A stretch of DNA of 62,975 bases, counting the filler. It is 6 parts of 6 records of this genome, joined end to end, with 100 filler letters (N's around TTAATTAATTAA, not from the genome) between each part and the next. Parts side by side here need not be neighbours in the genome. Positions count along the whole stretch, not along the records: positions 13,149 to 33,001 come from SRR31156797_16671; 5 more parts are not named here. One strand, written 5' to 3'. The position numbers and the translations under genes were made by a program. Positions within the stretch are counted from its first letter, which is position 1; the number at the start of each line of letters is the position of its first letter. Shown here piece by piece: positions 12,182-39,635 of the stretch. The notes under the pieces are model-generated. The model saw only the letters and a list, made by a program, of their open reading frames with translations, was not told the DNA's origin and did not search any database.

Positions 12182-13048
12182 ATGACAAAGATTACAGAAA
12201 TTTACGGCAGTGACGTTTTTAACGATAGCGTTATGAGAGAAAGGTTAACAAAGCCTGTCTACAAGTCACTGAAGGCGGTAATGGGAAGCGGCGGTCAACT
12301 ATCTTTGGAAGTTGCGGATGTAGTAGCAAACGCAATGAAGGACTGGGCAATCGAGAAGGGTGCAACTCACTTTACTCACTGGTTCCAGCCAATGACAGGA
12401 CTTACAGCTGAGAAGCACGACTCATTTATATCACCAATAGGTGACGGCGAGATTATGTTAACATTCTCAGGCAAGGAACTTATCCAAGGTGAACCTGACG
12501 CATCATCATTCCCTAACGGCGGACTAAGACAAACAGCTGAAGCAAGAGGCTATACAGCTTGGGACTGTACATCACCAGCATTCGTAAAGGACGGTACACT
12601 ATATATACCAACAGCATTCTGTTCATACACAGGATTTGCACTTGATAAAAAAACACCTTTGCTTCGTTCAATGGATGCAGTATCAAAGCAAGCGTTAAAG
12701 ATTATGAAGCTGTTCGGCAATACAACAGCAACTAAGGTTACATCATATGTTGGTCCAGAACAGGAGTATTTCTTGATTGACAAGAAAATGTTCGACCAAA
12801 GAAAAGACCTTATATATTCAGGCAGAACACTATTCGGTGCACCTTCTCCAAAAGGACAGGAAATGGATGACCAATACTTCGGTTCACTAAAGGAACGTGT
12901 ATCAGCATTCATGAAGGAATTCGATGAAGAGCTGTGGAAGCTAGGTGTAGCAAGTACTACAAAGCATAACGAAGTTGCTCCAGCACAGCACGAAATGGCA
13001 CCTGTATATTCTACAACAAATATAGCAACAGACCACAACCAATTGGTT
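12182..13048 (+). CDS. glnA: Glutamine synthetase type III (partial, truncated by contig end)
   Basis: [52 protein letters not shown]. Confidence 0.95.
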
Positions 13049-13148
13049 NNNNNNNNNNNNNNNNNNNNNNNNNNNNNNNNNNNNNNNNNNNNTTAATTAA
13101 TTAANNNNNNNNNNNNNNNNNNNNNNNNNNNNNNNNNNNNNNNNNNNN
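13049..13148. other. Artificial contig spacer
   Basis: N-run with TTAATTAATTAA; gene content changes across it. Confidence 0.98.
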
Positions 13149-20235: not shown

Positions 20236-20631
20236 ATGAGTGATTTCAAACAACCTTTTTCTTTAGGAGAAAAAAACGAGGCTTATGCTCAATATTTTGT
20301 AGGGCAAAGTTATATATCAGTGCTGTCGCTCGAAGGTGCCCAATCCTTTAATGTGACTTTTGAACCGGGATGCCGCAACAACTGGCATATTCACCATAAA
20401 GGAGGTCAAATATTATACTGTACTGCTGGTGAAGGATGGTATCAGGCAGAAGGGCAACCAGGACAAAAATTAAAAGTTGGAGATGTGGTAAATATTCCTG
20501 CCGGAGTAAATCATTGGCATGGTGCAACTAAAGATAGTTGGTTTGCTCACATTGCTTTATCTATTCCAGCTGAAGGAGCAAGTGTTGAATGGTTAAATCC
20601 TGTTACTGATGAAGAGTATAATCAACTTTAA
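20236..20631 (+). CDS. Cupin domain protein
   Basis: VTFEPGCRNNWHIH, GEGWYQ, HWHGA. Confidence 0.9.
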   Translation: MSDFKQPFSLGEKNEAYAQYFVGQSYISVLSLEGAQSFNVTFEPGCRNNWHIHHKGGQILYCTAGEGWYQAEGQPGQKLKVGDVVNIPAGVNHWHGATKDSWFAHIALSIPAEGASVEWLNPVTDEEYNQL

Positions 20632-20643
20632 ATAATAGAACAG

Positions 20644-21717
20644 ATGAGAAATTTAAAAACAATAGGGATGGGACTGATAGTGTTATTCATGCTTATAACA
20701 CAATCATGTACTAGCACAAACAACGATAAAAGTTTGGAACAAATGAAAAATACAGAACAGAAGGAACATTACACGTTTGAATTAAATGATAATGTAATAA
20801 GAGAAAAAGTAACTTTCACCAATCGTTACGGAATTACATTAACCGGAGATTTATATCTACCTAAAAACCGAGGCGAAGAAAAATTAGCAGCCATCTCAGT
20901 AAGTGGCCCTTATGGAGCTGTAAAAGAACAATCTTCAGGTTTATATGCTAACGAATTAGCTCAAAGAGGTTTTGCAGTGGTAGCTTTTGATCCTTCTTTT
21001 ACTGGAGAAAGTGGAGGCGAACCTCGCAATGTAGCTTCACCGGATATTAATTCAGAAGATTTTAGTGCAGCTATTGATTTTCTTGGAATTCAACCTTTTG
21101 TTGACAGAGAAAAAGTGGGTATCATGGGTATTTGTGGTTTTGGTGGTATGGGCTTAAATGCTACAGCTGCAGATAAGAGAGTTAAAGCCATTGCTGTAGC
21201 CAGTATGTACGATATGTCTCGCGTTACTTCAAAGGGATATTTCGATAGTATGACTCCAGAGCAACGTTCAGGAATGTTAGAGCAATTAGGACAACAACGT
21301 TGGAAAGATGCTGAGGCTGGAAAACCTGCATATGGTACGCAAGGGCTTCCTGAGGCTGATCAGTTAACCGGAAACGAACCTGAGTTTGTACAAGGTTATG
21401 TGAATTATTACAAAACAGAAAGAGGTTTTCATCCTCGTTCTATTAATTCAAATGGAGCTTGGACAGCAACAAATGCATTATCATTTATGAATATGCCATT
21501 AATGACTTACATCAGCGAAATTTCACCTCGTCCAATTTTAATTATAGCTGGAGAAAAAGCACACTCACGTTATTTTAGTGAAGATGCTTATAAAGCAGCC
21601 AATGAGCCTAAAGAATTAATGATTATTCCGGGAGCAGTTCATACGGATTTATATGATAAAACAGATATTATCCCATTTGATAAATTAGAGACTTTCTTTA
21701 AAGAAAACCTGAAATAA
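20644..21717 (+). CDS. Alpha/beta hydrolase (YcjY-like), probable lipoprotein
   Basis: Signal peptide with TQSC lipobox-like site; GAVKEQ, TGESGGEPR, GICGFGG nucleophile elbow, HTDLYD. Confidence 0.88.
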   Translation: MRNLKTIGMGLIVLFMLITQSCTSTNNDKSLEQMKNTEQKEHYTFELNDNVIREKVTFTNRYGITLTGDLYLPKNRGEEKLAAISVSGPYGAVKEQSSGLYANELAQRGFAVVAFDPSFTGESGGEPRNVASPDINSEDFSAAIDFLGIQPFVDREKVGIMGICGFGGMGLNATAADKRVKAIAVASMYDMSRVTSKGYFDSMTPEQRSGMLEQLGQQRWKDAEAGKPAYGTQGLPEADQLTGNEPEFVQGYVNYYKTERGFHPRSINSNGAWTATNALSFMNMPLMTYISEISPRPILIIAGEKAHSRYFSEDAYKAANEPKELMIIPGAVHTDLYDKTDIIPFDKLETFFKENLK

Positions 21718-21748
21718 GAATAAATAGAACAAAATACTAAGATTAAAC

Positions 21749-21778
21749 TTCCCAATGATCATTTTGTGTCATTGGGAA
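21749..21778 (+). terminator. Hairpin / probable terminator
   Basis: TTCCCAATGA...TCATTGGGAA about 30 bp after the stop codon. Confidence 0.55.
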
Positions 21779-22100
21779 TTCTTCATATATAACCATTTCA
21801 AAATTTCCTTGAAACATAAAGACAAGCTATTCTTAAAACTTATTAAGGTGTATAAATTATAAAATAGGTGGATTATCTGTGAAAACAGGTAGTTGAATAT
21901 AAAAACCGGTTTTAAATAATTAAGATATTCTTTAATATTGCTATGCTAAAAAGGCATTAAATCAATTAATTTAAGCTACTCTTAGTATAAAAATAATATG
22001 AAAAGGAGCATGATTACAATTGTTGTTATATAATCATAAAACCATTATCGTAGGTAAAGTAATCATGTGATTTTATGAGATAATGTATAAAATCTAACAA

Positions 22101-24881
22101 ATGAAAAAAATCAACAGTCTTGCCATTTTACTTTTAATAGTGGTAAGCAGTTTAATGCAGGCACAGCAAACAGAAAAGCAAATGCTGTCCGGGAATAGTA
22201 TTGAAGAAGGTACTACCTGGGATTTCTTTTGTACTGCCGGTAGAAATAGTGGAGAATGGACAAAAATTCGTGTTCCTTCCTGCTGGGAAACAGAAGGTTT
22301 TGGAACCTACAATTATGGGTATGAAAAAAATAAGGCTTCGGAGAAAGGCTTATATAAAACTACCTTTTCATTGCCTGAATCCTGGAAAGAGAAGCGTGTT
22401 TTTATAGTTTTTGAAGGTTCCATGACAGATACAAAAGTGGAAGTGAATGGAAAACAGGCAGGAGATATCCATCAAGGATCATTTTATCGATTTAAAAGAG
22501 AAATTACAGAACTTGTAAAGATGGATGAAGATAATCTACTGGAAGTGGAAGTGAGTAAAATGTCTTCTAACCAAAGTATTAACCGGGCAGAGCGCGATGC
22601 TGATTATTGGGTGTTTGGGGGAATCTATCGCCCGGTATACCTGGAGGCTGTTCCAAAAACATTTGTGGAATATACAGGAATTAATGCCGGACATGATGGA
22701 GAAATCGATTTGGAGATTCACCTGGATAAAGCGATTGCAAAGGCAAAAGTAAATGTGGATATCATAGAAGTGGTGACAGGGGAAAAAGTAGGAGAGTTTG
22801 AGTCAATAACAAAAGATGAAAGTAGCAAACTGAAAGCTTCTTCCTCTTTTTCGAACATAAAACCCTGGACAGCTGAAACACCGCACTTATATGATGCCAT
22901 AGTTACCGTAAGTCAAAAGGGAGATGTGTTACATACTCTTACCGAGCGTTTTGGTTTTCGTACCGTTGAAGTGCGACAAAGAGATGGTGTATACGTAAAT
23001 GGTAAAAAGATCAGATTTAAAGGTGTTAACCGCCATTGCTTTTGGCCAAGTACAGGGAGAACGGTGAATAAGGAGCAAAGTTTGATGGATGCTGAGTTAA
23101 TTAAGGAGATGAATATGAATGCGGTTCGTATGTCACATTACCCACCGGATAAACATTTTCTTGAAATTTGTGATTCTTTAGGTTTATATGTGATCGACGA
23201 GCTTTGTGCCTGGCAAAAACCATGGTATGATACCAATGTGGGAACCATTTTAGTGAATGAAATGGTAAAAAGAGACATCAATCATCCTTCCATAATCTTT
23301 TGGGCAAACGGAAACGAAGGTGGTTTTAACAGGGATTTTGATCCTATGTTCAAAGAGCTGGATATTCAGAAAAGACCTGTAATTCATCCTTTCGGATTAC
23401 ATGAAGGAATTAATACAGTGCATTACATTTCGTACAATTCGGGTATAAAAAACATGTTTAATGGGCGTGATATTTTTATGCCTACAGAAAGTTTGCACGG
23501 ATTATATGATGGCGGACACGGAGCCGGCTTGGATGATTATTGGAACCTGATGTTATCAAATCCGCTTTCTGCCGGTTTATTTTTATGGGACTTTTCTGAT
23601 GAAGGTGTTGTGCGTACCGATAAAGATGGTGTTCTGGATACAGATAAAGCTTCAGGTGCTGATGGTATCTTAGGGCCTTACAGAGAAAAAGAAGCTAGTT
23701 TTTATACCATTAAAGTGATATGGTCGCCCATTTATATCCCAAAGAAATACATTACGCCACAATGGGATGGGAAATTAAACATTGAAAATCGTTATGATTT
23801 TAACAATATTAATCAATGTAGTTTTTCATTTACTTTAAAGCGTTTTGATGGATTGAATGGAACCTTTAAAGAAGCAAAAGGAAGTGTAAAATCTCCAGAT
23901 ATTGCTCCTTGGACTGAAGGAGAACTGGAAATTGAATTGCCGAAAGATTGGAAGTCCTATGATGTGCTGTATTTGACTGCAAAAGATGATAAAAATAATG
24001 AAATATATACCTGGAGTTACGAATTAAATTCTCCTGCTTTTTTTGCTACGCGTGTTTTGGATATAGAAACAGATAAGGTCGCAAAAATAAAGAAAAGCGA
24101 GACGGATTCATTATATATATTGTCGGCTGGAGAAGTTAGTGTAAAAATAAGTAAAACAACAGGTATGCTAGTGGAGGTTGAAAGAAAAAACGGGATTATT
24201 CCTTTAACCAACGGACCTGTATTTATTACCGATCAAAACTTAAAATGTAATAAGGTATCACTTCGCAGCAGTATAGATGTCTACAGTATTGATGCCGTAT
24301 ATAGCTATCCAAACGGTTGGGATGCTTATCGCTTTAGCTGGACGATGCAACAAAATGGAGTATTACAATTAGATTACGATTACAGGCCTTGGGATAAAAT
24401 AGCAATGAGTGGTATTACTTTTAATTTTCCGGAAAAGGATATAGAAGGAGCTCAATTGTTAGCCAATGGACCTTACAGGGTTTATAATAATCGTTTAAAA
24501 GGAACTACTTTAAATATATGGGAAAAAGAATACAACGATGGAATAACGGGAGAGGTTTGGGATTATCCTGAATTTAAAGGTTACTATTCGTTATTCTATG
24601 GAATGAAGTTAAAATGCCCAACACCATTTGAAGTATATACAGCATCGGAAGATATATTCCTGCATTTGTTTACGCCAACAATGCAACGTCAGTACGATCC
24701 AAAACGAAATTTTACATGTCCTCCATATCCAACGGGGAATATCTCATTTATGGATGCGATACCAGCCGTGGGAACGAAATTTCAGCCAGTAGAAAACTTT
24801 GGACCCAAATCTCAATTGCACCGCTTTAAAGGATTCAGCGAAACGCCTAATATGATTAACCGTATTTATTTTAAATTTTGA
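22101..24881 (+). CDS. Glycoside hydrolase family 2 (beta-galactosidase-like), secreted
   Basis: Signal peptide; GGIYRPVYL, FGFRTVE, KGVNRH, NAVRMSHYP, WANGNE acid/base, MPTE nucleophile. Confidence 0.92.
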   Translation: MKKINSLAILLLIVVSSLMQAQQTEKQMLSGNSIEEGTTWDFFCTAGRNSGEWTKIRVPSCWETEGFGTYNYGYEKNKASEKGLYKTTFSLPESWKEKRVFIVFEGSMTDTKVEVNGKQAGDIHQGSFYRFKREITELVKMDEDNLLEVEVSKMSSNQSINRAERDADYWVFGGIYRPVYLEAVPKTFVEYTGINAGHDGEIDLEIHLDKAIAKAKVNVDIIEVVTGEKVGEFESITKDESSKLKASSSFSNIKPWTAETPHLYDAIVTVSQKGDVLHTLTERFGFRTVEVRQRDGVYVNGKKIRFKGVNRHCFWPSTGRTVNKEQSLMDAELIKEMNMNAVRMSHYPPDKHFLEICDSLGLYVIDELCAWQKPWYDTNVGTILVNEMVKRDINHPSIIFWANGNEGGFNRDFDPMFKELDIQKRPVIHPFGLHEGINTVHYISYNSGIKNMFNGRDIFMPTESLHGLYDGGHGAGLDDYWNLMLSNPLSAGLFLWDFSDEGVVRTDKDGVLDTDKASGADGILGPYREKEASFYTIKVIWSPIYIPKKYITPQWDGKLNIENRYDFNNINQCSFSFTLKRFDGLNGTFKEAKGSVKSPDIAPWTEGELEIELPKDWKSYDVLYLTAKDDKNNEIYTWSYELNSPAFFATRVLDIETDKVAKIKKSETDSLYILSAGEVSVKISKTTGMLVEVERKNGIIPLTNGPVFITDQNLKCNKVSLRSSIDVYSIDAVYSYPNGWDAYRFSWTMQQNGVLQLDYDYRPWDKIAMSGITFNFPEKDIEGAQLLANGPYRVYNNRLKGTTLNIWEKEYNDGITGEVWDYPEFKGYYSLFYGMKLKCPTPFEVYTASEDIFLHLFTPTMQRQYDPKRNFTCPPYPTGNISFMDAIPAVGTKFQPVENFGPKSQLHRFKGFSETPNMINRIYFKF

Positions 24882-25015
24882 TGTAAAAGGTTATTAATAA
24901 AGTAATATTGTAAAGATCTATTTCGTAATAGATTGCAATATATAAGAGCTATTAATTGTCAATGACAAATAAGCATGGACTAATAGTTAATTACAATAAT
25001 TCAGTTAAATAATTT

Positions 25016-25072
25016 ATCCCTCAAAATGCAATAGGCATTTTGGGGGATTTTTTATTCCTATTTCTCAGATAG
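25016..25072 (+). repeat. Direct repeat copy 1 (terminator-like hairpin plus tail)
   Basis: ATCCCTCAAAATGC-aatag-GCATTTTGGGGGAT + TTTTT, then CTATTTCTCAGATAG; near-identical to 28050-28111. Confidence 0.85.
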
Positions 25073-25632
25073 TAAATTTAAATATTTGGCTTAAAGAAGA
25101 TGTTGTCATCGTAATTTCATAAAATATAGATTTGATATAGTTTAATTCTTTGAAAAAAGAGTACCTGTTAGTAAAGAAAGAATTGAAGGGTGGCAGGATG
25201 GAAGTAATGTGACGGTTCGTTGCTTATTTTTTGTTCAACTAAATCGGAATTAATTAAAATATTTATATCATAATTGGCATTTGATATATTATTAATATAT
25301 TGCTGAAGAAATATATTTATGATTAATGTGAATAGATGTTAATTAAAGACTTAGTATATATTAATTGTCTTAATACCATGAGAAAAGATAACCATGGAGA
25401 GCTTGGTTTATGTAGGTATATTGTTGTTTGTTAGGCGTTTAGGGAATTGGGAGGTGGTTTTGTTGCTTTTTCTAAGAAATGCATAGGTCGTAAATTCTCA
25501 AAAGACGCATGATGGCTTATTAAGCTGAAATTTATATCGGATCATTAAAAATAAGATTATTGTTTATAATAATTGCTTAAATAAATCGACTATACTAAAA
25601 ACTATATTACTAAATGTTTAATAAAAAATACT

Positions 25633-28011
25633 ATGGGATACATTTTAGGGATTAATTCAAGTCACGATCCGAGCGTTTGTTTATTAAAAGACGATAAACT
25701 AATAGCAGCAATCGAAGAGGAACGACTGAATCTGGATAAACATTCAGCATTAATAAAAATATCCACAGTAGGTAGCCGAAGTTTAATCAAATATTTGCCA
25801 TTCTTGTCTATCAATTATGTTTTAGATTGTGCGGGTATTGGCATAGATGATGTGGACGAGATAATTATTAATGATTGCGACATGGTTATTCATAATGCTA
25901 CATTAAGTACGCTTGAATACCTGAAAAGTGTAATCCCGGTTAAAGATAAATCCAAAATAAAATACCTGACTCCATCTTCTCATCATCTGATGCATGCTTA
26001 CAATGCTTATTATCAATCAAAATTTACCGAAAGTATCATTGTGGTAGTTGATTCCTTCTCTGGTAAAGATTTGACGAAGAAAGATGATAAAGGAGTTTAT
26101 GAAACTATTTTTTATGCAAAAAACAATGAAATAAAAGAGATATATAAGCGCGAAAAATTACCCGGAGAAATGGGAATAGGAGCTCTTTATCAATTCTTTT
26201 GTAAGTTGCTTGATTTTAATACAAAGCTTTCATACGATGCACCTTATAACTATTTTAAAATTGGTTTTGATGAGGCTGGGAAATTAATGGGGCTCGCTAG
26301 TTATGGTAATGATGTGTATAGTGATACAATAACAAAAGTTAAGGATGGTGAGTTAAGCATAAAAATAAAAGACCTGTATGATTTCGGAATAAAGCACAAT
26401 ATTGTAGAGGAAATATTATATCCGGAGAATCTAAATAAATTAAGTTTGGTACCTGGGCAACAGCTTATAATGCCAAACAAAACCTATTCAGATTATACAA
26501 AAGAGATTGCACAGAATTACGCTTATTTTGCTCAGAAAGAACTTGAAAGAGCAATGGAGTTCTTTGTTGAAAAGGCTGATGGGTTCGTAAATTGTAATAA
26601 TGTGTGTATTGCTGGTGGAGTAGCGTTAAATTGCTTAGCTAATGGCAAGCTTTATAAAAAATATAACACCAAAAACTTCTTTATACCTTTTGCACCTGCT
26701 GATAACGGAAATGCATTGGGTGCATGCTTTTATGGTTATGCAGAACAGAATAAAAATATAGCTGGCTTAAAGGAAAGTAAAATACAATTTAAGAACCTGA
26801 CTCCATTCTTAGGTAAACCATATCAAATAAGTAAAGAAGAAATACTCGAAGCTGCCGAAATGCATGGTTTTGATAGAGATTCTTTAACAGTGGTAGAGTT
26901 AAAGAATGAAGAACTGGCACAAACGGTTGCCGAATATCTGAAAGAGGAGTTTATAGTGGCCTTAATTGAAGGAGGTTCTGAGTTTGGTCCTCGCGCTTTA
27001 GGACATAGGAGTATTTTAGCGAGCCCCATTAAAAAGGAAACCAAGGATTATTTAAATTTATATATCAAAAAGCGGGAGTGGTTTCGTCCTTTGGCACCTG
27101 TACTTTTAGAGGATTATAAAAATGTTTATTTCGAAGCTGAAAATGCAGATAGTCCTTATATGTCTAAAGTTGTTCAGCTTAGAGATAAGTATTCATTTAT
27201 CTCAGCTATTAAGAATATTGATGAAAGTTCCCGGATTCAAACAGTAAATAAGGACTATAATGGTGTATTAAAAGATATTATTACTGCCTTTGGCAAGATG
27301 AGTGATGTATATATGCTGTTAAATACATCCTTAAATTATAAAGGTTTGCCAATATTAGAGAATCCGCTCGATATATTTGCCATATATGAAGATATACCGG
27401 TGGATATTATTGTAATAAATAACTATCTGATTTACGATAAAGAAATTATTCATAATTTAATGATTTATGATGCGCTAAAAGACGATACAAAGATTGAGTT
27501 GGCTAATGATATGTTGAATTCATCTAACTTTTTTAGAGCATCAAGAATATTTGAGGATTTATATGTGAAAACAAATAATCCATTATTTCTTTTCGAAGTC
27601 TTCAAAATCCTTTTCAATTTAATTAATGAAGAGAAAAGAATTGAAGGAATATATAAAGCCTTAAGTCAACATAGTTCAGTAATATTTGAAAGGATAAAAG
27701 GTAGTCTTGTAGAACAGGAGCTTAGAGTATATTTAGGTGTGTATCAAATGGTACACTATGATAATAATACTGATTCATATGGCTTGAATAGTATGATAAA
27801 TGAAAATAGTGTTAGAACAATTGCGATGATATTTATGAAAGTACTTGCATATGCAAAAATGGAGTGTCCTAAATCTATACAGAGTGAGAATACTAAAATA
27901 TTTATCGAAAAATTGCTTCCATATACGGTTGATTTGGATGTATTTCAGTCTATTATGAAAATAATGAAGCAGGAGAAAGATAAAAAAGTACTTGAGGTAG
28001 CGGAATCATAG
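25633..28011 (+). CDS. NodU/CmcH/TobZ-family O-carbamoyltransferase with ~190-aa C-terminal helical extension
   Basis: HD, EEERL, HHLMHA, GKLMGLASYG, AGGVALNC, EFGPRALGHRSILA, KKREWFRPLAP, LLNTSLN. Confidence 0.9.
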   Translation: MGYILGINSSHDPSVCLLKDDKLIAAIEEERLNLDKHSALIKISTVGSRSLIKYLPFLSINYVLDCAGIGIDDVDEIIINDCDMVIHNATLSTLEYLKSVIPVKDKSKIKYLTPSSHHLMHAYNAYYQSKFTESIIVVVDSFSGKDLTKKDDKGVYETIFYAKNNEIKEIYKREKLPGEMGIGALYQFFCKLLDFNTKLSYDAPYNYFKIGFDEAGKLMGLASYGNDVYSDTITKVKDGELSIKIKDLYDFGIKHNIVEEILYPENLNKLSLVPGQQLIMPNKTYSDYTKEIAQNYAYFAQKELERAMEFFVEKADGFVNCNNVCIAGGVALNCLANGKLYKKYNTKNFFIPFAPADNGNALGACFYGYAEQNKNIAGLKESKIQFKNLTPFLGKPYQISKEEILEAAEMHGFDRDSLTVVELKNEELAQTVAEYLKEEFIVALIEGGSEFGPRALGHRSILASPIKKETKDYLNLYIKKREWFRPLAPVLLEDYKNVYFEAENADSPYMSKVVQLRDKYSFISAIKNIDESSRIQTVNKDYNGVLKDIITAFGKMSDVYMLLNTSLNYKGLPILENPLDIFAIYEDIPVDIIVINNYLIYDKEIIHNLMIYDALKDDTKIELANDMLNSSNFFRASRIFEDLYVKTNNPLFLFEVFKILFNLINEEKRIEGIYKALSQHSSVIFERIKGSLVEQELRVYLGVYQMVHYDNNTDSYGLNSMINENSVRTIAMIFMKVLAYAKMECPKSIQSENTKIFIEKLLPYTVDLDVFQSIMKIMKQEKDKKVLEVAES

Positions 28012-28049
28012 CAGATTTAATCTGTATGTAAAATAAAATACAAATATAG

Positions 28050-28111
28050 ATCCCTCAAAATGAATAGGCATTTTGGGGGATTATTGTTTCATATCTATTT
28101 ACTCCTGATAG
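28050..28111 (+). repeat. Direct repeat copy 2 (terminator-like hairpin plus tail)
   Basis: ATCCCTCAAAATG-aatagg-CATTTTGGGGGAT then CTATTTACTCCTGATAG. Confidence 0.85.
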
Positions 28112-28161
28112 ATTATAAAGCACCCAAAATACCATATTCAACACATAATAAGCATCACAAT

Positions 28162-28476
28162 CGATAAAAATGACCTGTTCTGCAGACGGGAAAGTGTATA
28201 ATGTTAAAACATTAACAGCTAATACCAACAGGAAAGATATTGAGCCTGACGGGGTGACATGTTAACCTGACGGGAAGACATGTTTGAACCACAAAATAGC
28301 TTCTGAGAATAAAAAAATAGCTTCTAAGACTAACGGGAAAGATATACATGCTGACGGGGTGACATGTTGGACTGTCGGGAAGACATGATTGCGAATAAAA
28401 ATAGACACTCAAGATCAAAAAATAGGAGGTAAGAACATAAAAATAGCATCTAAGGTATTTAGAATAAATAAGCATG
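28162..28476. repeat. Degenerate 21-bp-period tandem array (~15 units, two unit classes, 105-bp higher-order repeat)
   Basis: In-phase units, e.g. 28246 CTGACGGGGTGACATGTTAAC, 28267 CTGACGGGAAGACATGTTTGA, 28288 ACCACAAAATAGCTTCTGAGA, 28309 ATAAAAAAATAGCTTCTAAGA, 28351 CTGACGGGGTGACATGTTGGA, 28372 CTGTCGGGAAGACATGATTGC. Confidence 0.9.
28212..28475 (-). CDS. Possible 87-aa heptad-repeat peptide encoded by the array (expression unproven)
   Basis: ATG at the array edge; heptads LRCYFYV/LTSYFLI/QSCLPDS/PTCHPVS/LRSYFFI/QTCLPVR/LTCHPVR; the repeat continues past the stop. Confidence 0.3.
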   Translation of the reverse strand: MLIYSKYLRCYFYVLTSYFLILSVYFYSQSCLPDSPTCHPVSMYIFPVSLRSYFFILRSYFVVQTCLPVRLTCHPVRLNIFPVGISC

Positions 28477-28744
28477 ATTGAATGGTTGTATATATGGTCT
28501 GCAAATTCAACTACATATCATGGGTTTATATTTGATCAACAAAAAATGAAAATATTTACAATTTGATATTGACATAATTTCAAAACGGGGTTAAATTATA
28601 GTTAGATAAAGTAATTCAACGATGCTTTAATTATAGCAATATTAAATTAAAAAAGAAACACATCTTTAGCAAACCAGCTCAAATACAACGGGATGCTATA
28701 CTAATGGTTTCAAACATTAAGTATTCATTTTAAAAAGTACAACT

Positions 28745-29431
28745 ATGAATAAACTCATTGAATCCAAATTTAATTCAAACAAGCTAGTATTGGCTACATT
28801 AGAACATTACAATAGTATATATGCCCATATACCAGTAATGGTGGAAAACGTGAATATACTAAAGAACCTGATTCAGGATACAAATAACTTATCTGCTAAA
28901 GTTCAGAATATACCGCATAAAGTGGCAGGTAATAAAAGTATAACACGCGCTGAATTAGCGATCATATCCAATAAAATAAGTAATATTTTATTAGTATATG
29001 CGAATATGAATCATGAACAAAATTTACAGGACTTTCTGATTACTTCAGAAAATGTTTTGCTAAAACAAATGCGTGGTCGCGAAATATTGGATTATGCAAA
29101 GAATGTATTGGATAGGGCTATTGAAAAAGGAGAAGCTTTAAATAATTATGGTATTACACCTGAAATGATTAATGAATTGTCGACAGGCATTAACGACTTT
29201 GAAGGTGTAATAGCACAACCAAGGGAACTTATTGCCAAAAGAAAAACGCATAATGAACTAATGACAGAATCTGTGGTAAAAGCTTCTGATATTATAGAAG
29301 ATAAGATCGATCCGTTTATGGAACTGTTTAAAAATAATAAGGAATTTTACCTGGAATATAAAACGGCTCGTATAGCTGTTGATCCAGCTTCTCGTTCACG
29401 GAAAGAAGCAACGGAAGATATCAACGAATAA
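28745..29431 (+). CDS. Uncharacterised all-alpha protein (228 aa)
   Basis: Long ORF with A-rich start context and a downstream terminator; amphipathic helices; LxxYGIT and FYxEYxxARxxxDP motifs. Confidence 0.8.
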   Translation: MNKLIESKFNSNKLVLATLEHYNSIYAHIPVMVENVNILKNLIQDTNNLSAKVQNIPHKVAGNKSITRAELAIISNKISNILLVYANMNHEQNLQDFLITSENVLLKQMRGREILDYAKNVLDRAIEKGEALNNYGITPEMINELSTGINDFEGVIAQPRELIAKRKTHNELMTESVVKASDIIEDKIDPFMELFKNNKEFYLEYKTARIAVDPASRSRKEATEDINE

Positions 29432-29463
29432 ACTTCATAAATAATAGGTTGAATTACTCAAGT

Positions 29464-29504
29464 AAAGGATGTTAAAAAGTAAAAGCTTTTTAGCATCCTT
29501 TTTT
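29464..29504 (+). terminator. Intrinsic terminator
   Basis: AAAGGATGTTAAAAAG-taaaag-CTTTTTAGCATCCTTT + TTT. Confidence 0.8.
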
Positions 29505-29941
29505 ATTGTAATGTACATACATCATTAAGTGATGACAAATTATAGGTTCAGAAAAGGTTGAGTTATTCGCATATTAGAGTATTTTAATTACTTATATTAT
29601 AACTAACTTTTCATATATGGATTTAATGCTTATTTTTACTATAATTATAACAAAATGAATGAGATAATGAGGTGTAGATTAAAGATTGTAAATGCGAAAA
29701 TCTATTAATTCATAAAATGAAATCGAATCTTTTAGCCTTAATAATGTGTTTGTTGGCACGGTATTTATTGCATCCTTTACTGTAAATACTAATAAAGTTC
29801 TTATTGTTGAGATGCTCAATCATAAAGCATCATATTAACTTTTTAATTCTTGATTTATCAATTCTGAATGGATCACAAAAACTTTGCATAAAGTATAACG
29901 AATTTGATCGAACAATAATAATAAACTATAAAGGTAAAAAA

Positions 29942-30397
29942 ATGAAAAAATTAGAAGTAAGCTCAGAAGGAACTCATTACTCTACTATTGATTTAGGATA
30001 TTTAAATAATTTAATGGAGTATTCATACATGCATCCTAAAAGAAACCAGGAAGTACAAGGAAAAGTATTTATTGGAGAATGTTTAAAATCGAGCAGTGCT
30101 GAGATATCTTTTACGGTATTGCCACCCAAAGCTGAAATGCCTTTTTTTCATCAGCATAAAAATAATGAAGAAATATATATCATTTTAAAAGGTTCAGGAC
30201 AATTTCAAATCGATGAGGATTTATTTAATGTTTCAGAAGGCTCTATTATAAGAGTTTCACCAGAAGGAAGAAGAACCTATCGAAATAATTCGGATGAAGC
30301 ATTAACATTTCTGTGTATTCAAATTAAAGTAGGTTCATTAGAGCAATTTAATGTGGAAGATGGATTCCTGGCAGAGGGTAAAACGTTATGGAGGTAA
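29942..30397 (+). CDS. Cupin domain protein
   Basis: PFFHQHKNNEEIYIILKGSG cupin motif; ATG at 29942 preferred over the TTG at 29804. Confidence 0.85.
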   Translation: MKKLEVSSEGTHYSTIDLGYLNNLMEYSYMHPKRNQEVQGKVFIGECLKSSSAEISFTVLPPKAEMPFFHQHKNNEEIYIILKGSGQFQIDEDLFNVSEGSIIRVSPEGRRTYRNNSDEALTFLCIQIKVGSLEQFNVEDGFLAEGKTLWR

Positions 30398-30466
30398 ACA
30401 TCCATATTAGAATACACAAAGAAAATTTATACTAAAATAAAATAAGATATTTATTGCAGTTAAATC

Positions 30467-30979
30467 ATGAAAAAACTACTTACAATTATAGCCATTGCCT
30501 TTTTATGGAATGGAATTACCATAGCACAAACCTCAGAAACATTAACTCAGGAAGAACAGCTTGATAAATTAAAAAAAATGAAGGCATCAGTATTAATTAA
30601 TTCCGATGATTCCAAATCGATATTAATTGATAATGGTAGTGCAAAGATCATTGTTAATTCAAACGGGATGCACTCTACTCTAATTGATAATGGAGCTACG
30701 GCTTTGTTGGTTAATCCGGACGGAACACATTCTACTATTACTAAAAATAAGGATATTTATACCATAATGAATACCAATGGTAGTCATAGGGTTATGGTAT
30801 TTAAAAAGAAGGAACTAGCTCTTTTGAAGTCGGATGGAAGCTGTTCCGATTTAGATGAAGATATTAAAGTAACCACCATTTCTGATTCCGACGGAGCTCC
30901 ATGTATATGTATTGTTTATAAAAATGTTACAACAACCATAAATGCAAATGGAAAGATAAAAACCCATAGTGTAAATTAG
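30467..30979 (+). CDS. Secreted protein with ~19-aa NxDG beta-hairpin repeats
   Basis: Signal peptide (..TIAQ); repeats INSDDSKS / VNSNGMHS / VNPDGTHS / MNTNGSHR / LKSDGSCS at 19-aa spacing. Confidence 0.75.
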   Translation: MKKLLTIIAIAFLWNGITIAQTSETLTQEEQLDKLKKMKASVLINSDDSKSILIDNGSAKIIVNSNGMHSTLIDNGATALLVNPDGTHSTITKNKDIYTIMNTNGSHRVMVFKKKELALLKSDGSCSDLDEDIKVTTISDSDGAPCICIVYKNVTTTINANGKIKTHSVN

Positions 30980-31046
30980 TTTTAAGACTGGAAAAATGGT
31001 GAGTATGAATATAAAAACCAGCCATCTTTTAAATAAGAAATAGGTA

Positions 31047-31511
31047 ATGAATATTGCAATTAGAAATATATTTATTTTAATACTGTTTTTAAATACACCA
31101 ATGGTTTTCTCTCAAGACAAAGCTCTTGAGGTGTATATGAGAAAAAACCCCTCTAAAAAATATATTATTAACATTGATGATCGTGTATTAATTAAATGCA
31201 GACCATATGCTGATAAATCACAAAAAAAGCAATATGTGGTTGCTCGATTAGCGGCAATAGATGGTAGAAAGTTTTATTTTTCCCCAATTAGCAGTCATTA
31301 TAGTGAAACTATTTATACACCATCTACTCTAAGAGAAATTGGTATTAAAACAACTTTCAATAAGGTAATGACAATTATACATTATGGATGGCGAATTCAT
31401 GATCTTATTCGATTTAAGAAAGTGACTTTTCCAAGATCTTGTACAGATGGCTTATATAAAAGAGTCAATATTAAAAGTATTAAATGGAGAGTTCGTACTG
31501 TGGATATTTAA
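31047..31511 (+). CDS. Hypothetical secreted basic protein
   Basis: Signal peptide ending VFS-Q; no recognised domain. Confidence 0.65.
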   Translation: MNIAIRNIFILILFLNTPMVFSQDKALEVYMRKNPSKKYIINIDDRVLIKCRPYADKSQKKQYVVARLAAIDGRKFYFSPISSHYSETIYTPSTLREIGIKTTFNKVMTIIHYGWRIHDLIRFKKVTFPRSCTDGLYKRVNIKSIKWRVRTVDI

Positions 31512-31615
31512 GATTTTGGAATATAAGAATTGAGTCAATTTCTAATCATTTATTAATTGTATAAGATATAGTTTTAAAGCAAAAACAGTCGACTGCACCA
31601 AACAAAGAACCTAAC

Positions 31616-32452
31616 ATGGCAACATATCTAAAAACAAACTGGAATTATAATTCAGAACAACTGATAGAAGTATTTGATGAGCTGCCATTTTGGGCTGCTC
31701 CTTTTGGATTGCAGTTACTGGATGGAATAAAATATAAAAAAGGTATTCAGGTATTGGATATTGGTTTTGGGGCAGGCTTTCCTTTAACCGAAATTGCCAT
31801 GCGTTTAGGAAAAGATTCAAAGGTGTTTGGTATTGATCCATGGGATGTGGCTATAGATAGAGCCGAGAAGAAGATTGATTTCTATAATATTGATAATATC
31901 GAAATTATTCGCGGCAAAGCAGAGAGTATTCCATTGCAAGACGCTTCTATAGATTTGATTGTAAGTAATAATGGTTTAAATAACGTATCAGATCTGGATA
32001 AAACCTTATTTGAGTGTTCCAGAATAATAAAAAAAGGAGGACAGTTTATTCAAACCATGAACCTGAATAATACGATGATGGAGTTTTATATGGTAATGGA
32101 AAGCGTATTAAAGGAATTAAAACTTGAAGATTGTTTAAGTAATTTGAGTGATCATATTTACAAAAAAAGAAAACCGGTAGATGAATATCTGGAAAAAATA
32201 GAGCTGTATGGATTTGAAGTGAAAGAAGTAAAGCATCATCAATTTGAATATAAATTTGTGGATGGCACAAGCATGCTTAACCATTATTTTATTCGATTGG
32301 CCTTTATGGATTCCTGGAAGAATATTGTTCCTGAAGAAAAGCAACAAATTGTATTTAAGCATATAGAATCCGAATTAAACAGACAATCAGATATTGATGG
32401 AATAATGAAATTGACCATTCCTTTTGTATTAATTGATTGCGAAAAAAGCTAA
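31616..32452 (+). CDS. Class I SAM-dependent methyltransferase
   Basis: VLDIGFGAG, GIDPW, SIDLIVSN, RIIKKGG. Confidence 0.9.
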   Translation: MATYLKTNWNYNSEQLIEVFDELPFWAAPFGLQLLDGIKYKKGIQVLDIGFGAGFPLTEIAMRLGKDSKVFGIDPWDVAIDRAEKKIDFYNIDNIEIIRGKAESIPLQDASIDLIVSNNGLNNVSDLDKTLFECSRIIKKGGQFIQTMNLNNTMMEFYMVMESVLKELKLEDCLSNLSDHIYKKRKPVDEYLEKIELYGFEVKEVKHHQFEYKFVDGTSMLNHYFIRLAFMDSWKNIVPEEKQQIVFKHIESELNRQSDIDGIMKLTIPFVLIDCEKS

Positions 32453-32502
32453 TTAAAATAGCATACTCAGTAAACTTGATTTAAAATATAAGGATTATTA
32501 AA

Positions 32503-32961
32503 ACGGATACAGAAATAGGTAATGCAGATCTTTCTGATTTAGCAGAAATATTGAAAGTACAGCATGAAGCCTACATACAGGAAGCAGATATATACAATAA
32601 TTATACTATACCACCTTTGCTTCAGAATCTTGATGCTTTAATTCAGGAATGGAACGAAGGAATAGTGATCAAAGCGGTGTATAATGAGCAAATAATTGGT
32701 TCGGTTCGTGCTAAAGCTGATAACAATATTTGTAGGATAGGTAAACTCATTGTAAAACCTGCCTTTCAAAACCAAGGACTCGGAAAAAGATTAATGGAAG
32801 CTATTGAAATGCAATTCAATCAATGTTCCGTATTTGAATTATTTACCGGACACAGGAGTGAAAAGAATTTAAAGCTATACAAAAAGCTCGGTTATGAGCC
32901 ATTTAATACCGAACAATTCGATGATGGATTAACACTGATTTATTTAAGAAAGCAGCCTTGA
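32503..32961 (+). CDS. GNAT-family N-acetyltransferase (apparent ACG in the start-codon position)
   Basis: IIGSVRA, KLIVKPAFQNQGLGKRLM, NLKLYKKLGY; GNAT-like N-terminus (ADLSDLAEILKVQ) lies upstream of the TTG at 32551. Confidence 0.8.
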   Translation, partial: TDTEIGNADLSDLAEILKVQHEAYIQEADIYNNYTIPPLLQNLDALIQEWNEGIVIKAVYNEQIIGSVRAKADNNICRIGKLIVKPAFQNQGLGKRLMEAIEMQFNQCSVFELFTGHRSEKNLKLYKKLGYEPFNTEQFDDGLTLIYLRKQP

Positions 32962-33001
32962 TTTTCTTTGTTCACTTTCTTTCATCAAGGAAAGAAAAGT
33001 G
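32962..33001. repeat. REP-like palindromic element at contig end
   Basis: TTTTCTTTGTTCACTTTCTTTCATCAAGGAAAGAAAAGTG; imperfect inverted repeat CACTTTCTTTC / GAAAGAAAAGTG; assembly breaks here. Confidence 0.5.
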
Positions 33002-37143: not shown

Positions 37144-38679
37144 ATGCCAAATCAAAATATTAATAAGATTGATCTTATCTATCTAACTCCAGATCATCAT
37201 CAAGCCATAGTTGCTTTGATGGAGCATGAATATAGACATCTTGATGATTCTGCATGGACAAAAGAAGAGTTTGAAGCTCTTATCAGTAAATTTCCAAAAG
37301 GGCAGGTGGGTATCACTATTGATGGGGAGTTTGCAGGGTTTGCACTTTGTATTATAGTAGATTATGAAAAGTTTGAAGATACCCATACCTATAAAGAGAT
37401 CACAGGAGATTATACTTTTAATACCCATGATAATAATGGAAAAACTTTATATGGAATTGATATTTTTATTAGTAAAAAATATCGAGGACTTAGACTAGGG
37501 CGTAGGCTATATGATTATAGAAAAGAGCTATGTGAAGAGCTCAATCTAAAAAATATCCTTTTTGGAGGAAGATTACCAAACTATAAAAAATATACTCATA
37601 TTATGACTCCAAAAGAGTATATTCAAAAAGTAAAAGAGAAAGAGATCCATGATCCAGTTTTGAACTTTCAGCTCTCTAATGATTTTTTTGTAAAAAGGGT
37701 AATCAAAAATTATCTAGAGGGTGATATAGAGAGTTGTGAATATGCAGCGCTGCTTAGTTGGGAGAATATCTACTTTTCAAAACCGACAAAAACTCCTACG
37801 TTTGAAAAGACAGTGGTAAGGCTTGGACTTATCCAATGGCAAGTAAGAACTTATAACTCTTTTGAAGAGGTGATGGAACAGGCTGAGTATTTTATCGATG
37901 CTGTTTCAAGCTATAGAAGTGACTTTGTTTTATTTCCAGAGTTTTTTAATGCTCCATTGATGGCAGAACATAATCATCTTGATGAACCTGATGCGATACG
38001 AGAGCTTGCTAAATATACCCATAGGTTTAAAGAGGAGTTCTCAAAGCTAGCTATAAGTTACAATATAAATATCATTGGTGGAAGTATGCCAGAACTCATT
38101 GATGGAGATCTTTATAATGTTGGCTTTTTATGTAGAAGAGATGGAACTACAGAAAAATATGCCAAGATCCATGTCACTCCAGATGAGAAAAAAGTATGGG
38201 GGATGAAAGGAGCCAATAGTATCAAAACTTTTGATACAGATTGTGGAAAAATAGGGGTGCTTATCTGTTATGATAGTGAGTTTCCTGAACTCTCGCGATA
38301 TCTAGCCATTGAGGGGATGGATATCTTATTTGTACCATTTCTAACAGATACTCAAAATGGATATTCCCGTGTAAGAAACTGTTCTCAAGCAAGGGCGATT
38401 GAAAATGAATGTTATGTAGCAATTGCTGGGTGTGTGGGAAACTTACCAAAAGTACATAATATGGATATACAATATGCTCAATCAGCTGTATTTACACCAT
38501 GTGATTTTTCATTTCCATCAAATGGGGTAAAAGCAGAATCTACACCAAATACAGAGATGATACTTGTAGCTGATGTTGACCTTGCTTTAATAAAAGAGCT
38601 TCACAATCTAGGAGGAGTAACCAACCTCAAAGATCGAAGAACCGATCTTTATGAGATCACTTTAAAAAGAGAGATTTAA
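37144..38679 (+). CDS. Fused GNAT acetyltransferase / carbon-nitrogen hydrolase
   Basis: YRGLRLGRRLY acetyl-CoA motif; nitrilase triad FPE, YAKIH, ICYD. Confidence 0.92.
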   Translation: MPNQNINKIDLIYLTPDHHQAIVALMEHEYRHLDDSAWTKEEFEALISKFPKGQVGITIDGEFAGFALCIIVDYEKFEDTHTYKEITGDYTFNTHDNNGKTLYGIDIFISKKYRGLRLGRRLYDYRKELCEELNLKNILFGGRLPNYKKYTHIMTPKEYIQKVKEKEIHDPVLNFQLSNDFFVKRVIKNYLEGDIESCEYAALLSWENIYFSKPTKTPTFEKTVVRLGLIQWQVRTYNSFEEVMEQAEYFIDAVSSYRSDFVLFPEFFNAPLMAEHNHLDEPDAIRELAKYTHRFKEEFSKLAISYNINIIGGSMPELIDGDLYNVGFLCRRDGTTEKYAKIHVTPDEKKVWGMKGANSIKTFDTDCGKIGVLICYDSEFPELSRYLAIEGMDILFVPFLTDTQNGYSRVRNCSQARAIENECYVAIAGCVGNLPKVHNMDIQYAQSAVFTPCDFSFPSNGVKAESTPNTEMILVADVDLALIKELHNLGGVTNLKDRRTDLYEITLKREI

Positions 38680-39635
38680 GAGATAGGGATCTCTTCTTTT
38701 ATAGTAAGTCCAAATCCATTGATCCCTACAAAAGAGTGCTTTCCTCCACTTGTAAGAAGTTTGATATTTTTGATTCCAAGAGCATGTAGGATCTGAGCTC
38801 CGATTCCAAAATCTTTGATCGTATCTTGGTTTGGATTTTTATTTTCCAAGAAAATCAAAACTCCCCCTTTACTTTCTAAGAAGTTGATAGATTTTAACAT
38901 AGAGTTTAGTTTTGTATTATTTAAAAAGATATTGATATCAGGCTCAACCGTATGAAATTTTACAAGTGAAGTTTCATCTAACTCTTTAAATTGAATCACT
39001 GTATGTTCATTGTCTCTATGGTCTTTAAAAACTCTTTTTTGTACTATAGTATCAAAAAAAGTAGTCTCTTCATTTGAGATCTCAGTGACTAAACACTCAT
39101 TTGCCATTCTATACTCAACAAGATCTGAGATATAGATCTGTTTAAGATCATGCTTTTGAGCAAAGATATCAAGATCATCACGTCTAGCCATTGTTCCATC
39201 TTCTTTCATGATCTCACAAATAACCGCTTCCCCAGCAAGTCCAGCTAATTTACAAAGATCGATACTTCCCTCCGTATGACCAGTTCGAACAAGTACACCA
39301 CCATCTTTAGCAATGAGTGGAAAAATATGACCAGGTTTTACAAGCTCCTCTTTTTTACTAATAGGATTTGCAAGAATTCGAATCGTATCATCTCTCTCCC
39401 CAGCACTAATCCCAGTACTAGCTTTTGCACAATCTACAGATACTGTAAAAGCTGTTTCATATGATGAGGTATTGCTAGCAACCATTGGTGCTAGATCTAA
39501 TCTCATAGCAGTCTCTTTTGTAACTGCAACACAGATCAAACCTTTTGCATGGGTAGCCATAAAGTTTACTTTTTGATCATCACTTAAAGCTGCTGCATAT
39601 ACAAGATCACCCTCATTTTCTCTATCTTCATCATC
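38676..39635 (-). CDS. ribB: DHBP synthase fused to a degenerate GTP cyclohydrolase II-like domain (RibBX type), 5' partial
   Basis: DDEDRENEGD at contig edge, FTVSVD, GISAGER, PGHIFPL, RTGHTE, ICEIM; C-domain keeps DFGIGAQIL but has no Zn-binding Cys. Confidence 0.92.
   Translation of the reverse strand, partial: DDEDRENEGDLVYAAALSDDQKVNFMATHAKGLICVAVTKETAMRLDLAPMVASNTSSYETAFTVSVDCAKASTGISAGERDDTIRILANPISKKEELVKPGHIFPLIAKDGGVLVRTGHTEGSIDLCKLAGLAGEAVICEIMKEDGTMARRDDLDIFAQKHDLKQIYISDLVEYRMANECLVTEISNEETTFFDTIVQKRVFKDHRDNEHTVIQFKELDETSLVKFHTVEPDINIFLNNTKLNSMLKSINFLESKGGVLIFLENKNPNQDTIKDFGIGAQILHALGIKNIKLLTSGGKHSFVGINGFGLTIKEEIPIS

Follow-up and report, generated by a model that had tools for sequence, protein, structure and literature searches.

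Arrays of short direct repeats matched to the product of a neighbouring gene are a known theme, whose familiar representatives are iterons, operator arrays and centromere arrays: direct repeats of about 20 bp, spaced by two helical turns, lie beside the gene of the matched protein, the repeated words are private to each system and an AT-rich stretch leads from the repeats to the gene. Here we describe a locus with these same features in a 62,975-nt stretch of DNA (the window; all positions count along its full length), namely a tandem array of 21-bp units upstream of the gene of an elongated, all-helical protein of 228 aa, both in the part of the window that comes from SRR31156797_16671 (Table 1). 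The nearest published items are the type III toxin-antitoxin (TA) loci toxIN, cptIN and tenpIN (PMC3401426) and the BrickBuilt element of Porphyromonas gingivalis, a non-autonomous MITE (miniature inverted-repeat transposable element; PMC4596501). As described there, type III TA loci are, like the locus described here, stand-alone pairs of an array and a gene, patchy and multi-copy, with repeats that co-vary with the protein; their definition includes a short palindromic repeat that serves as a terminator between array and gene, and the repeats measure 31–62 nt and occur in 1.9–5.6 copies (PMC3401426, Table 2). BrickBuilt resembles the window array in being made of intergenic, spacer-less tandem units of about 20 nt in Bacteroidota, and its copy number is strain-dependent, its translation implausible and an effect on neighbouring transcription proposed; it is built from a 23-nt word with a leader, a tail and inverted-repeat ends, and is found in 19 dispersed copies per genome beside unrelated genes (PMC4596501). 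Closest on the side of the protein are PQLLE (NCBIfam NF052641) and, as a weaker lead, DUF6261 (PF19775), which comprise helical Bacteroidota proteins of about 215–245 aa, multi-copy and with upstream arrays; neither has a described function, and a full-text literature search (including Bacteroidetes intergenic 21-bp repeats) returned no functional study of either and no account of the pairing of array and gene.

Tandem Repeats Finder (TRF) resolved the array in the window as a 105-bp period in 2.0 copies (28219–28425, 76% matches, score 244) with 21-bp sub-arrays at 28245–28284, 28293–28333 and 28395–28454. Laid out in steps of 21 bp from 28183, the array comprises a degenerate G-type and a degenerate A-type unit, followed by A-B-C-D-D (28225–28329), A-B-C-D-D-D (28330–28455) and a decayed unit that reaches to about 28476; units A, B and C carry the G-rich core CTGACGGG(G/A)(T/A)GACATG or a looser variant of it, while unit D reads AAAAATAG. 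The two 105-bp blocks agree at 76 of 105 positions, the strongest self-match lags are 105, 126, 21, 84 and 63, and the lag-21 match fraction of 0.46 was equalled by none of 2000 mononucleotide shuffles. With up to three mismatches allowed, the G-core CTGACGGGRWGACATG occurs four times in the 63-kb window, every time inside the array (0.59 occurrences expected). The GC content of the array is 0.38, and its gene-bearing strand is purine-rich.

An earlier note on this DNA, made from the sequence alone, had given the same unit order, which the 21-bp register bears out, and its figure of 51 matches in 63 nt between 28225–28287 and 28330–28392 is exact. It had counted about 15 in-phase units; the 21-bp register is real (TRF, unit layout), whereas the count comes to 13–14, and the distance from the array to the gene, put at about 270 bp, measures 289 bp to the start codon. 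All three plus-strand frames of the array are closed, as it said (12, 15 and 2 stops), the 228-aa gene is self-terminated at the coordinates proposed, and the protein is indeed uncharacterised, being a member of a large family without known function; one minus-strand frame that stays open through the whole array, giving an 87-aa open reading frame (ORF) at 28212–28475, was absent from the note. The note was also right that the array is not a set of clustered regularly interspaced short palindromic repeats (CRISPR): regular short direct repeats in intergenic DNA beside a protein gene are common to both, but the units in the window abut without unique spacers, there is no cas gene among 26 ORFs, and Rfam gives no match. 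Scans with Rfam and for tRNAs returned nothing in the array/gene region, the sole match in the window being one tRNA (Rfam).

An upstream array with a period of 21 or a multiple of it is paired with genes of this family, and with PQLLE genes, across Bacteroidota. The near relative of the window, reached via the carbamoyltransferase gene upstream of the array, is an uncultured Saccharicrinis genome (G001; Marinilabiliaceae, Bacteroidota), and the family is present in 39 of 101 genomes sampled from the family-level group of this relative (at most eight matches per genome there) and in 17 of 301 genomes of a phylum-wide sample. Two sets of loci were compared: the 30 best loci, spread over 30 genomes of that family-level group (gene ±1.5 kb, oriented on the gene), and 30 phylum-wide loci from 17 genomes, 29 of which are evaluable upstream (one locus has no upstream sequence). 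The statistic was the z-score of the lag-21 self-match in 168-bp segments, with a threshold of z≥5, and the controls were 225 segments of 900 bp: some came from distant flanks at 20 loci, some from the remainder of the window and others from seven loci picked arbitrarily in the relative. The threshold was reached in the upstream 900 bp of 24/30 genes in the first set and 20/29 phylum-wide, i.e. 44/59 genes from 47 genomes in total, as against 3/30 and 1/30 downstream flanks (4/60), 0/30 and 1/30 gene bodies (the latter a gene fragment with z 5.0) and 0/225 control segments (maximum 4.8). TRF detected arrays of period 21, 42, 63, 84, 105 or 126 upstream of 20 of the 30 genes of the first set, at a usual distance of about 150–420 bp from the gene; other periods were rare, and six loci had no detectable array. 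When 20 loci were extended to about 10.7 kb, such arrays were found to adjoin the family gene, with two exceptions (one weak array, and one array 1.9 kb downstream of the gene in L053). The window locus itself has both a full-length match to the profile of the family (A2; E 8.9e-78 for a protein that is itself a member of A2) and a period-21 array within about 900 bp upstream (lag-21 z 6.4), the two features that define A2 loci. PQLLE genes have an upstream lag-21 signal with z≥5 in 20/28 cases, and their arrays are mostly of period 42 (12 of the 13 strong ones), with 7–11 copies. DUF6261 genes (L119–L135, several of them in G001) show the lag-21 signal in 0/17 loci; their upstream arrays have a best lag of 41–43 in 13/17, with z≥8 in five. 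The earlier note had proposed enrichment of 21-bp periodicity near homologous genes as a test, which turned out positive (44/59 upstream against 0/225 in the controls), and its conditional claim of an undescribed array-plus-protein module, should the pairing be conserved, is supported by the same counts.

Comparison with the near relative shows how the module sits in the chromosome. In blastn searches of window positions 20600–33000 against the relative (L001), both flanks are about 95% identical, the homology continuing on the left through the terminator-like hairpin of the carbamoyltransferase gene, and the segment 28108–29601 is missing, in agreement with the three-way alignment of the junctions; since this segment is missing from the syntenic site, the module is a 1.5-kb presence/absence polymorphism. 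Both the ends of the 1.5-kb indel and the surroundings of the array were free of target-site duplications and terminal inverted repeats, the 26 ORFs from 12182 to 42695 include no phage, plasmid or cas gene (Pfam, PHROGs), and the neighbours of 20 family loci have no conserved gene family in common. The distribution is patchy, as the genome counts given above indicate, and multi-copy, with up to 8–9 modules per genome; one genome carries 11 PQLLE genes. The module is self-contained and strain-variable, has two parts and no conserved neighbours, and its 21-bp unit corresponds to two turns of the DNA helix. Array and gene together look like an undescribed two-part genetic module and, known as the theme of a repeat array matched to a neighbouring protein may be, there is a fair chance that the element is categorically new. 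To our knowledge, few such array-protein partnerships have been found in Bacteroidota, and none with a protein of such fold.

The repeated words are private to each locus: among 46 arrays (1035 pairs) eight pairs gave any blastn match, all in the same orientation relative to the gene, and four of these came from proteins at least 68% identical. Within the units the linker drifts around a retained core of about 6–16 bp. In the orthologous pair L014/L015 the alignment (80%) extends from position −153 through the gene, and the arrays are unalignable; the word NAGGTA is in phase in both, with four copies (three in phase) upstream of the L015 gene against three in the other 3.1 kb. The L016 and L021 genes are 98.3% identical (96.1% at third codon positions); the 100 bp immediately upstream of them agree at 100/100 positions, the arrays are 90.8% identical and the gaps 81.2%. 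Higher-order blocks 90–92% alike in L012, L014, L020 and L035 show ongoing or recent unequal exchange. Family arrays span 5 to 47 units, the longest reaching 39–47. As judged from reading frames and predicted folding, neither a protein nor a stable RNA fold is encoded by the arrays: four of 15 are closed in all six frames, open frames in the others lie on varying strands with none consistent, and the folding z-scores of 16 arrays, taken for both strands, scatter about zero between −2.5 and +3.5 (−1.69 and +0.49 for the two strands of the window array).

The protein family is large. With a cut-off of E≤1e-3 a profile search returned 2650 cluster representatives, of which 555 remain at E≤1e-10; a word-indexed homologue search recovered one relative, the full profile search being required for the rest. 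Members are usually about 215–240 aa long, the conserved positions include K64, G136, D189, F201, Y205 and R209, and a form of about 300 aa with a C-terminal CarboxypepD_reg-like domain occurs in 5/50 members. The helical part matched no Pfam family in the window protein or in 50 relatives, and the AlphaFold model (predicted local distance difference test score, pLDDT, 94.4) is wholly helical, with one helix of 57 residues. A comparison of the sequence profile with the PDB gave nothing under E 0.01, PADLOC and PHROGs had no match for family members, a protein-pattern search of genome, viral and metagenome collections found no relative, and the ESM Atlas returned hypothetical proteins only, with DUF6261 as a weak lead at 0.87–0.88. 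The window protein lies under the cut-off of NF052641 (no match at E≤0.01), and 7/50 relatives match that model weakly (best E 1.5e-5). The profile-profile alignment with hhalign, collinear across 179 columns (probability 73%, E 3e-5), makes a distant relationship between the window family and PQLLE probable; for DUF6261 the same comparison gave a probability of 1.6%, and homology is unsupported.

The AT-rich gap contains a single good sigma-70-like match, TTGACA-17-TAAATT at 28569–28597, which is a consensus match only (nine such matches were found in 27900–29600 versus 10.5 expected). The first of the two extra G-type cores listed in Table 1 begins exactly 16 × 21 bp from the core at 28249, i.e. 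in the register of the array (arithmetic on positions); G-core matches with two mismatches occur eight times outside the array region, on both strands of the 63-kb window. An in-register core within the spacer of a promoter-like sequence, noticed post hoc, is suggestive of a protein docking on the DNA. At nine of 30 loci (L014, L015, L016, L020–L024 and L030) a box of the form GTTACG-N16/17-ATTAAC lies between the array and the start codon, at −74 to −102, often with a short palindrome 3' of it (judged by eye). Because the box falls between array and gene, the array at these loci sits 5' of the apparent promoter, and outside any transcript initiating at the box. This box departs from the −33/−7 consensus of the usual Bacteroidota promoter and may mark part of the family as served by a sigma factor or regulator of its own. 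A sigma-54 reading, GTTACG...TTGCA, was tried and rejected, the spacing being 7 bp too long.

The fixed two-turn period, the private words and the kept cores with drifting linkers argue for a specific partnership between a protein and a nucleic acid rather than a neutral repeat; a fixed period combined with locus-private sequence usually marks such partnerships, as in iterons, centromeres and type III antitoxins. Our tentative preference, held with somewhat less than even confidence, is that the array is a putative phased docking platform, on one face of the DNA, matched to the module's own protein in the manner of iterons and operators. Acting as DNA, the array would display one word many times on the same helix face and, lying 5' of the promoter of the gene itself, would let a sequence-specific factor dock cooperatively. 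The module's own protein, alone or in complex, would be the most economical choice for this factor, and occupancy of the platform may set or buffer expression of the gene, comparable to what iterons do for Rep and operator or centromere arrays for their binders. A platform of DNA is favoured because the arrays lie 5' of recognisable promoter-like boxes and have no RNA structure, and because no terminator stands between array and gene and the units run to dozens; among binders, the module's own protein is the simplest candidate, since a change of protein goes with a change of words. The likeness to iterons, which rests on sequence layout, extends to the 21-bp register, within the range of about 17–22 bp for direct repeats at about two-turn spacing, but not to a recognisable Rep (winged-helix) initiator. 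Unlike iterons and operator or centromere arrays, the modules are chromosomal and many per genome, with arrays of 5 to 47 units; their all-helical, acidic protein has neither a winged-helix nor a ribbon-helix-helix domain, and a partner ATPase, a perfect DnaA box and plasmid genes are absent. With the pairing, a family of thousands without known function gains a testable handle and, if the arrays are binding platforms, the loci would amount to naturally orthogonal pairs of proteins and sites.

Several observations weigh against a platform for the module's own protein. The family is acidic to neutral (median isoelectric point 6.0 for 50 members; 5.8 for the window protein, with a net charge of −4), and neither Pfam nor NCBIfam identifies a helix-turn-helix or any other DNA-binding family in the window protein or in 50 relatives. 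Foldseek (PDB, BFVD) and VIA-align (48,161 chains) return generic helical bundles only, the best Z of 9.4 being under the meaningful level for helical proteins. Scans of 19 loci with the array matrices found no consistent extra array word near the start codon, the strong matches lying at the array edges only. Four of the 30 loci in the TRF set and one phylum-wide locus have the array downstream of the gene. The gene strand is purine-rich in 33/46 family arrays (in PQLLE arrays just 9/19), and the orientation of the array is conserved in 8/8 alignable pairs; a role as RNA would also explain both. Moreover, the relative's genome G001 has one copy of the window array elsewhere (L003), 75% identical over 202 nt, and retains just a 38-residue fragment of the window protein family.

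This solo copy has the same unit order as the window array (lag-21 z 7.2) and lies between a gene for a major facilitator superfamily (MFS) transporter and a small ORF, with no helical gene nearby; G001 has seven PQLLE genes and ten DUF6261 genes. The G-type cores are the best-conserved columns between the two copies. According to the earlier note, an array occurring genome-wide and independently of this gene family would overturn the pairing; the solo copy touches this point, but the array is not genome-wide, its DNA being found in one of 101 genomes of the group and absent from the 100 others. A metagenome scan with the array pattern yielded 19 matches, all in unrelated GC-rich (0.48–0.73) sequence without similarity to the array. 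Both known sites of the array word are strain-variable, because a 28-kb contig from the same sequencing run as the window has 4671 other bases in place of the 612 array-bearing bp at L003 1232–1843.

A bolder proposal, which we regard as possible though on the doubtful side, takes the helical proteins together. This family, PQLLE and perhaps DUF6261, thousands of proteins each with a private repeat address at a fixed period of 21/42 nt, would then form a new class of two-component elements: either an RNA-neutralised addiction or anti-phage system with an effector other than a nuclease, which would be a fourth kind of type III-like TA, unrelated in structure to the others, or a DNA-templated filament with one protomer per 21 bp.

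Taken for the window family itself, a type III TA-like system is an unlikely but serious alternative. The array would give a repetitive RNA that binds and neutralises, or is processed by, the adjacent protein; only on loss of the RNA would that protein be active or do harm. The arrangement of a tandem array 5' of a single gene, with repeats specific to the protein, is as published (PMC3401426), and it is seen in the window, with its array 289 bp before the gene, and in 44/59 homologous loci; the published loci include gaps of up to 340 bp and one case with downstream repeats. The module is patchy, multi-copy, strain-variable and without fixed neighbours, as TA and defence genes are, and the 42-nt period of PQLLE and the 41–43-nt periods linked to DUF6261 fall inside the published 31–62 nt; the conserved orientation and the purine-rich gene strand would be natural for an RNA. 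Unlike the published loci, however, the module has no interposed terminator as a rule: a hairpin with a T-run is present in the gap on the sense strand at 1/46 loci (antisense, 7/46), and the terminator scan of 27900–29600 in the window found no hairpin between 28476 and 28745. The basic unit of the window family is 21 nt, present 13–14 times in the window and up to 39–47 times elsewhere against the published 1.9–5.6 copies (PMC3401426), and even the PQLLE arrays, whose 42 nt are within the type III range, have 7–11 copies. The arrays have no predicted stable RNA fold, a promoter-like box stands between array and gene in nine loci, and the protein is all-helical and acidic; neither Pfam nor PADLOC gives a match of 50 members to ToxN, CptN or TenpN, and the fold matches, being generic bundles, exclude nothing. 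If the arrays were RNA partners after all, the type III TA idea would extend beyond ToxN-like nucleases.

Somewhat less probable than a type III-like system, in our estimate, is a platform for another factor, such as a host regulator, a nucleoid protein or an activator dependent on an alternative sigma factor, that would drive or silence the gene while the helical protein does not touch the array. The evidence from periodicity is the same as for a platform bound by the module's own protein, and a separate binder is a real alternative in view of the protein's acidity, the absence of any DNA-binding domain from it, and a solo array that has intact cores in a genome without the protein. The GTTACG-N16/17-ATTAAC box, too, points to a dedicated transcription factor or sigma factor for part of the family. 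The difficulty is that 1027 of the 1035 array pairs are dissimilar; since the words differ at nearly all loci, one shared host factor cannot read all of them, and matching variable binders would be needed elsewhere, of which none was seen beside the modules at 20 loci.

Slightly more doubtful again, a functionless minisatellite would arise by slippage or unequal crossing-over upstream of the gene, or else a mobile sequence with repeats, comparable to the BrickBuilt MITE, would carry the gene along. The likeness of the higher-order blocks, with its sign of recent unequal exchange, the turnover of arrays, which is faster than that of the genes, the solo copy, and the fact that both sites of the window word are strain-variable hot spots all agree with this, and an intergenic minisatellite inside a MITE is documented in Bacteroidota (PMC4596501). 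BrickBuilt differs from the window-type arrays, which have words of their own at each locus, a period of 21 or a multiple, no inverted ends and one protein family beside them. No terminal inverted repeats or target duplication were seen here, and the word is not dispersed, G001 having a single further copy and the 100 other genomes searched having none. Neutral slippage leaves unexplained why the period is 21 or a multiple across unrelated words, three locus sets and two protein families (0/225 controls), why cores are kept while linkers drift, and why, in L016/L021, identity is higher in the array (90.8%) than in the gap beside it (81.2%).

The classical iteron origin consists of direct repeats, an AT-rich stretch and a gene, and the window, with direct repeats at two-turn spacing, 289 bp of GC 0.25 and then the gene, has this layout; yet it is very improbable that array and gap are the origin of an integrated small replicon with the helical protein as initiator. 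Up to 8–11 modules per chromosome would mean as many extra origins, arrays of up to 47 units far exceed iteron sets, 28000–28760 has no perfect DnaA box TTATNCACA (four AT-rich matches with one mismatch), Pfam, NCBIfam and PHROGs assign no Rep family to the window protein or to any of 50 relatives, and no plasmid or phage genes lie nearby.

That the array encodes a heptad-repeat peptide on the minus strand (the 87-aa ORF), as 21 nt equal seven codons and one minus frame is open across the whole array, is hardly credible, given that the L003 copy has no ORF of at least 50 aa across the array and lacks the 87-aa ORF, that four of 15 other arrays are closed in six frames, and that any stop-free repeat unit automatically yields a long open frame; the heptad-coding template proposed in the earlier note is rejected on the same grounds. 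A related idea, that the array is a donor cassette templating the heptads of the gene, was discarded as well: the lag-21 signal is seen in 0/30 and 1/30 (borderline) gene bodies, and array matrices score low within genes.

Table 1. Features of the array-gene module and its left flank (positions along the whole window)
Feature	Position	Strand	Remarks
Carbamoyltransferase gene (Pfam Carbam_trans_N/C)	25633–28011		upstream of array
Terminator-like hairpin of carbamoyltransferase gene	28049–28082	+	last feature common with the relative before the variable segment
Strain-variable segment of about 1.5 kb (array, gap, gene, terminator)	28108–29601		ends approximate, within about 10 bp
Tandem array, 13–14 units in 21-bp register, two word classes	28183–28476		TRF, unit layout, lag statistics
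105-bp higher-order block, two copies	28205–28414		within array
Looser G-type unit (CCAACAGGAAAGATAT) ahead of the block-1 pair	28225	+	
Two G-type units, block 1, core CTGACGGG(G/A)(T/A)GACATG	28246–28287	+	
Two A-tract units, block 1 (AAAATAGCTTCT)	28288–28329	+	
Three G-type units, block 2	28330–28392	+	
Three A-tract units, block 2 (AAAAATAG)	28393–28455	+	
AT-rich gap from array to start codon, 289 bp, GC 0.25	28456–28744	+	
Extra G-type core ACGGGGTTAAAT, 2 mismatches	28585–28596	+	inside spacer of promoter-like match
Second extra G-type core ACGGGATGCTAT, 2 mismatches	28688–28699	+	57 bp before start codon, 2 bp off register
Gene of 228-aa all-helical protein; large Bacteroidota family without Pfam model	28745–29431	+	
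Terminator-like hairpin of 228-aa gene	29464–29501	+	terminator scan

A few observations on the homologous loci deserve mention in their own right. Strong GGAGG-type ribosome-binding sites precede the PQLLE genes of L095–L118 (genome G142); Bacteroidia do not usually have such sites, and the phylum-level sample therefore probably extends to other classes. Further long tandem repeats lie near family genes, with periods of 27/81, 24/72 and 12 in L060 (6339–7647), 463 bp × 2.5 in L045 (6801–7954) and 249 bp × 2.7 in L059 (7592–8261). Draft assemblies are broken by the arrays, several loci ending at a contig edge within the array (e.g. L012 and L029).

The 40 kb surrounding the module hold ordinary chromosomal genes, among them those for an Mrp antiporter, a GH2 glycosidase, Mla proteins and methyl- and acetyltransferases. 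A second variable spot lies immediately to the right of the module (window 29601–30461 versus L001 7484–9661), where the window has a 197-aa cupin gene and the relative two other genes, and where a 376-aa signal-peptide gene, intact in the relative, is reduced in the window to roughly its first 14 codons. Two apparently truncated genes were found (12182–13096 and 38676–39560 (−)), a type III glutamine synthetase gene (304 aa) and a RibBA-like gene with only the last part of the GTP cyclohydrolase II domain. Between 39700 and 56500 the GC content rises from about 0.30 to 0.44–0.57 and falls back, with many overlapping ORFs on both strands, which marks either a foreign island or a chimeric assembly join. 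The only other period-21 repeat in the window, at 60815–60862 (2.2 copies, score 54), lies inside a long minus-strand ORF and is probably coding.

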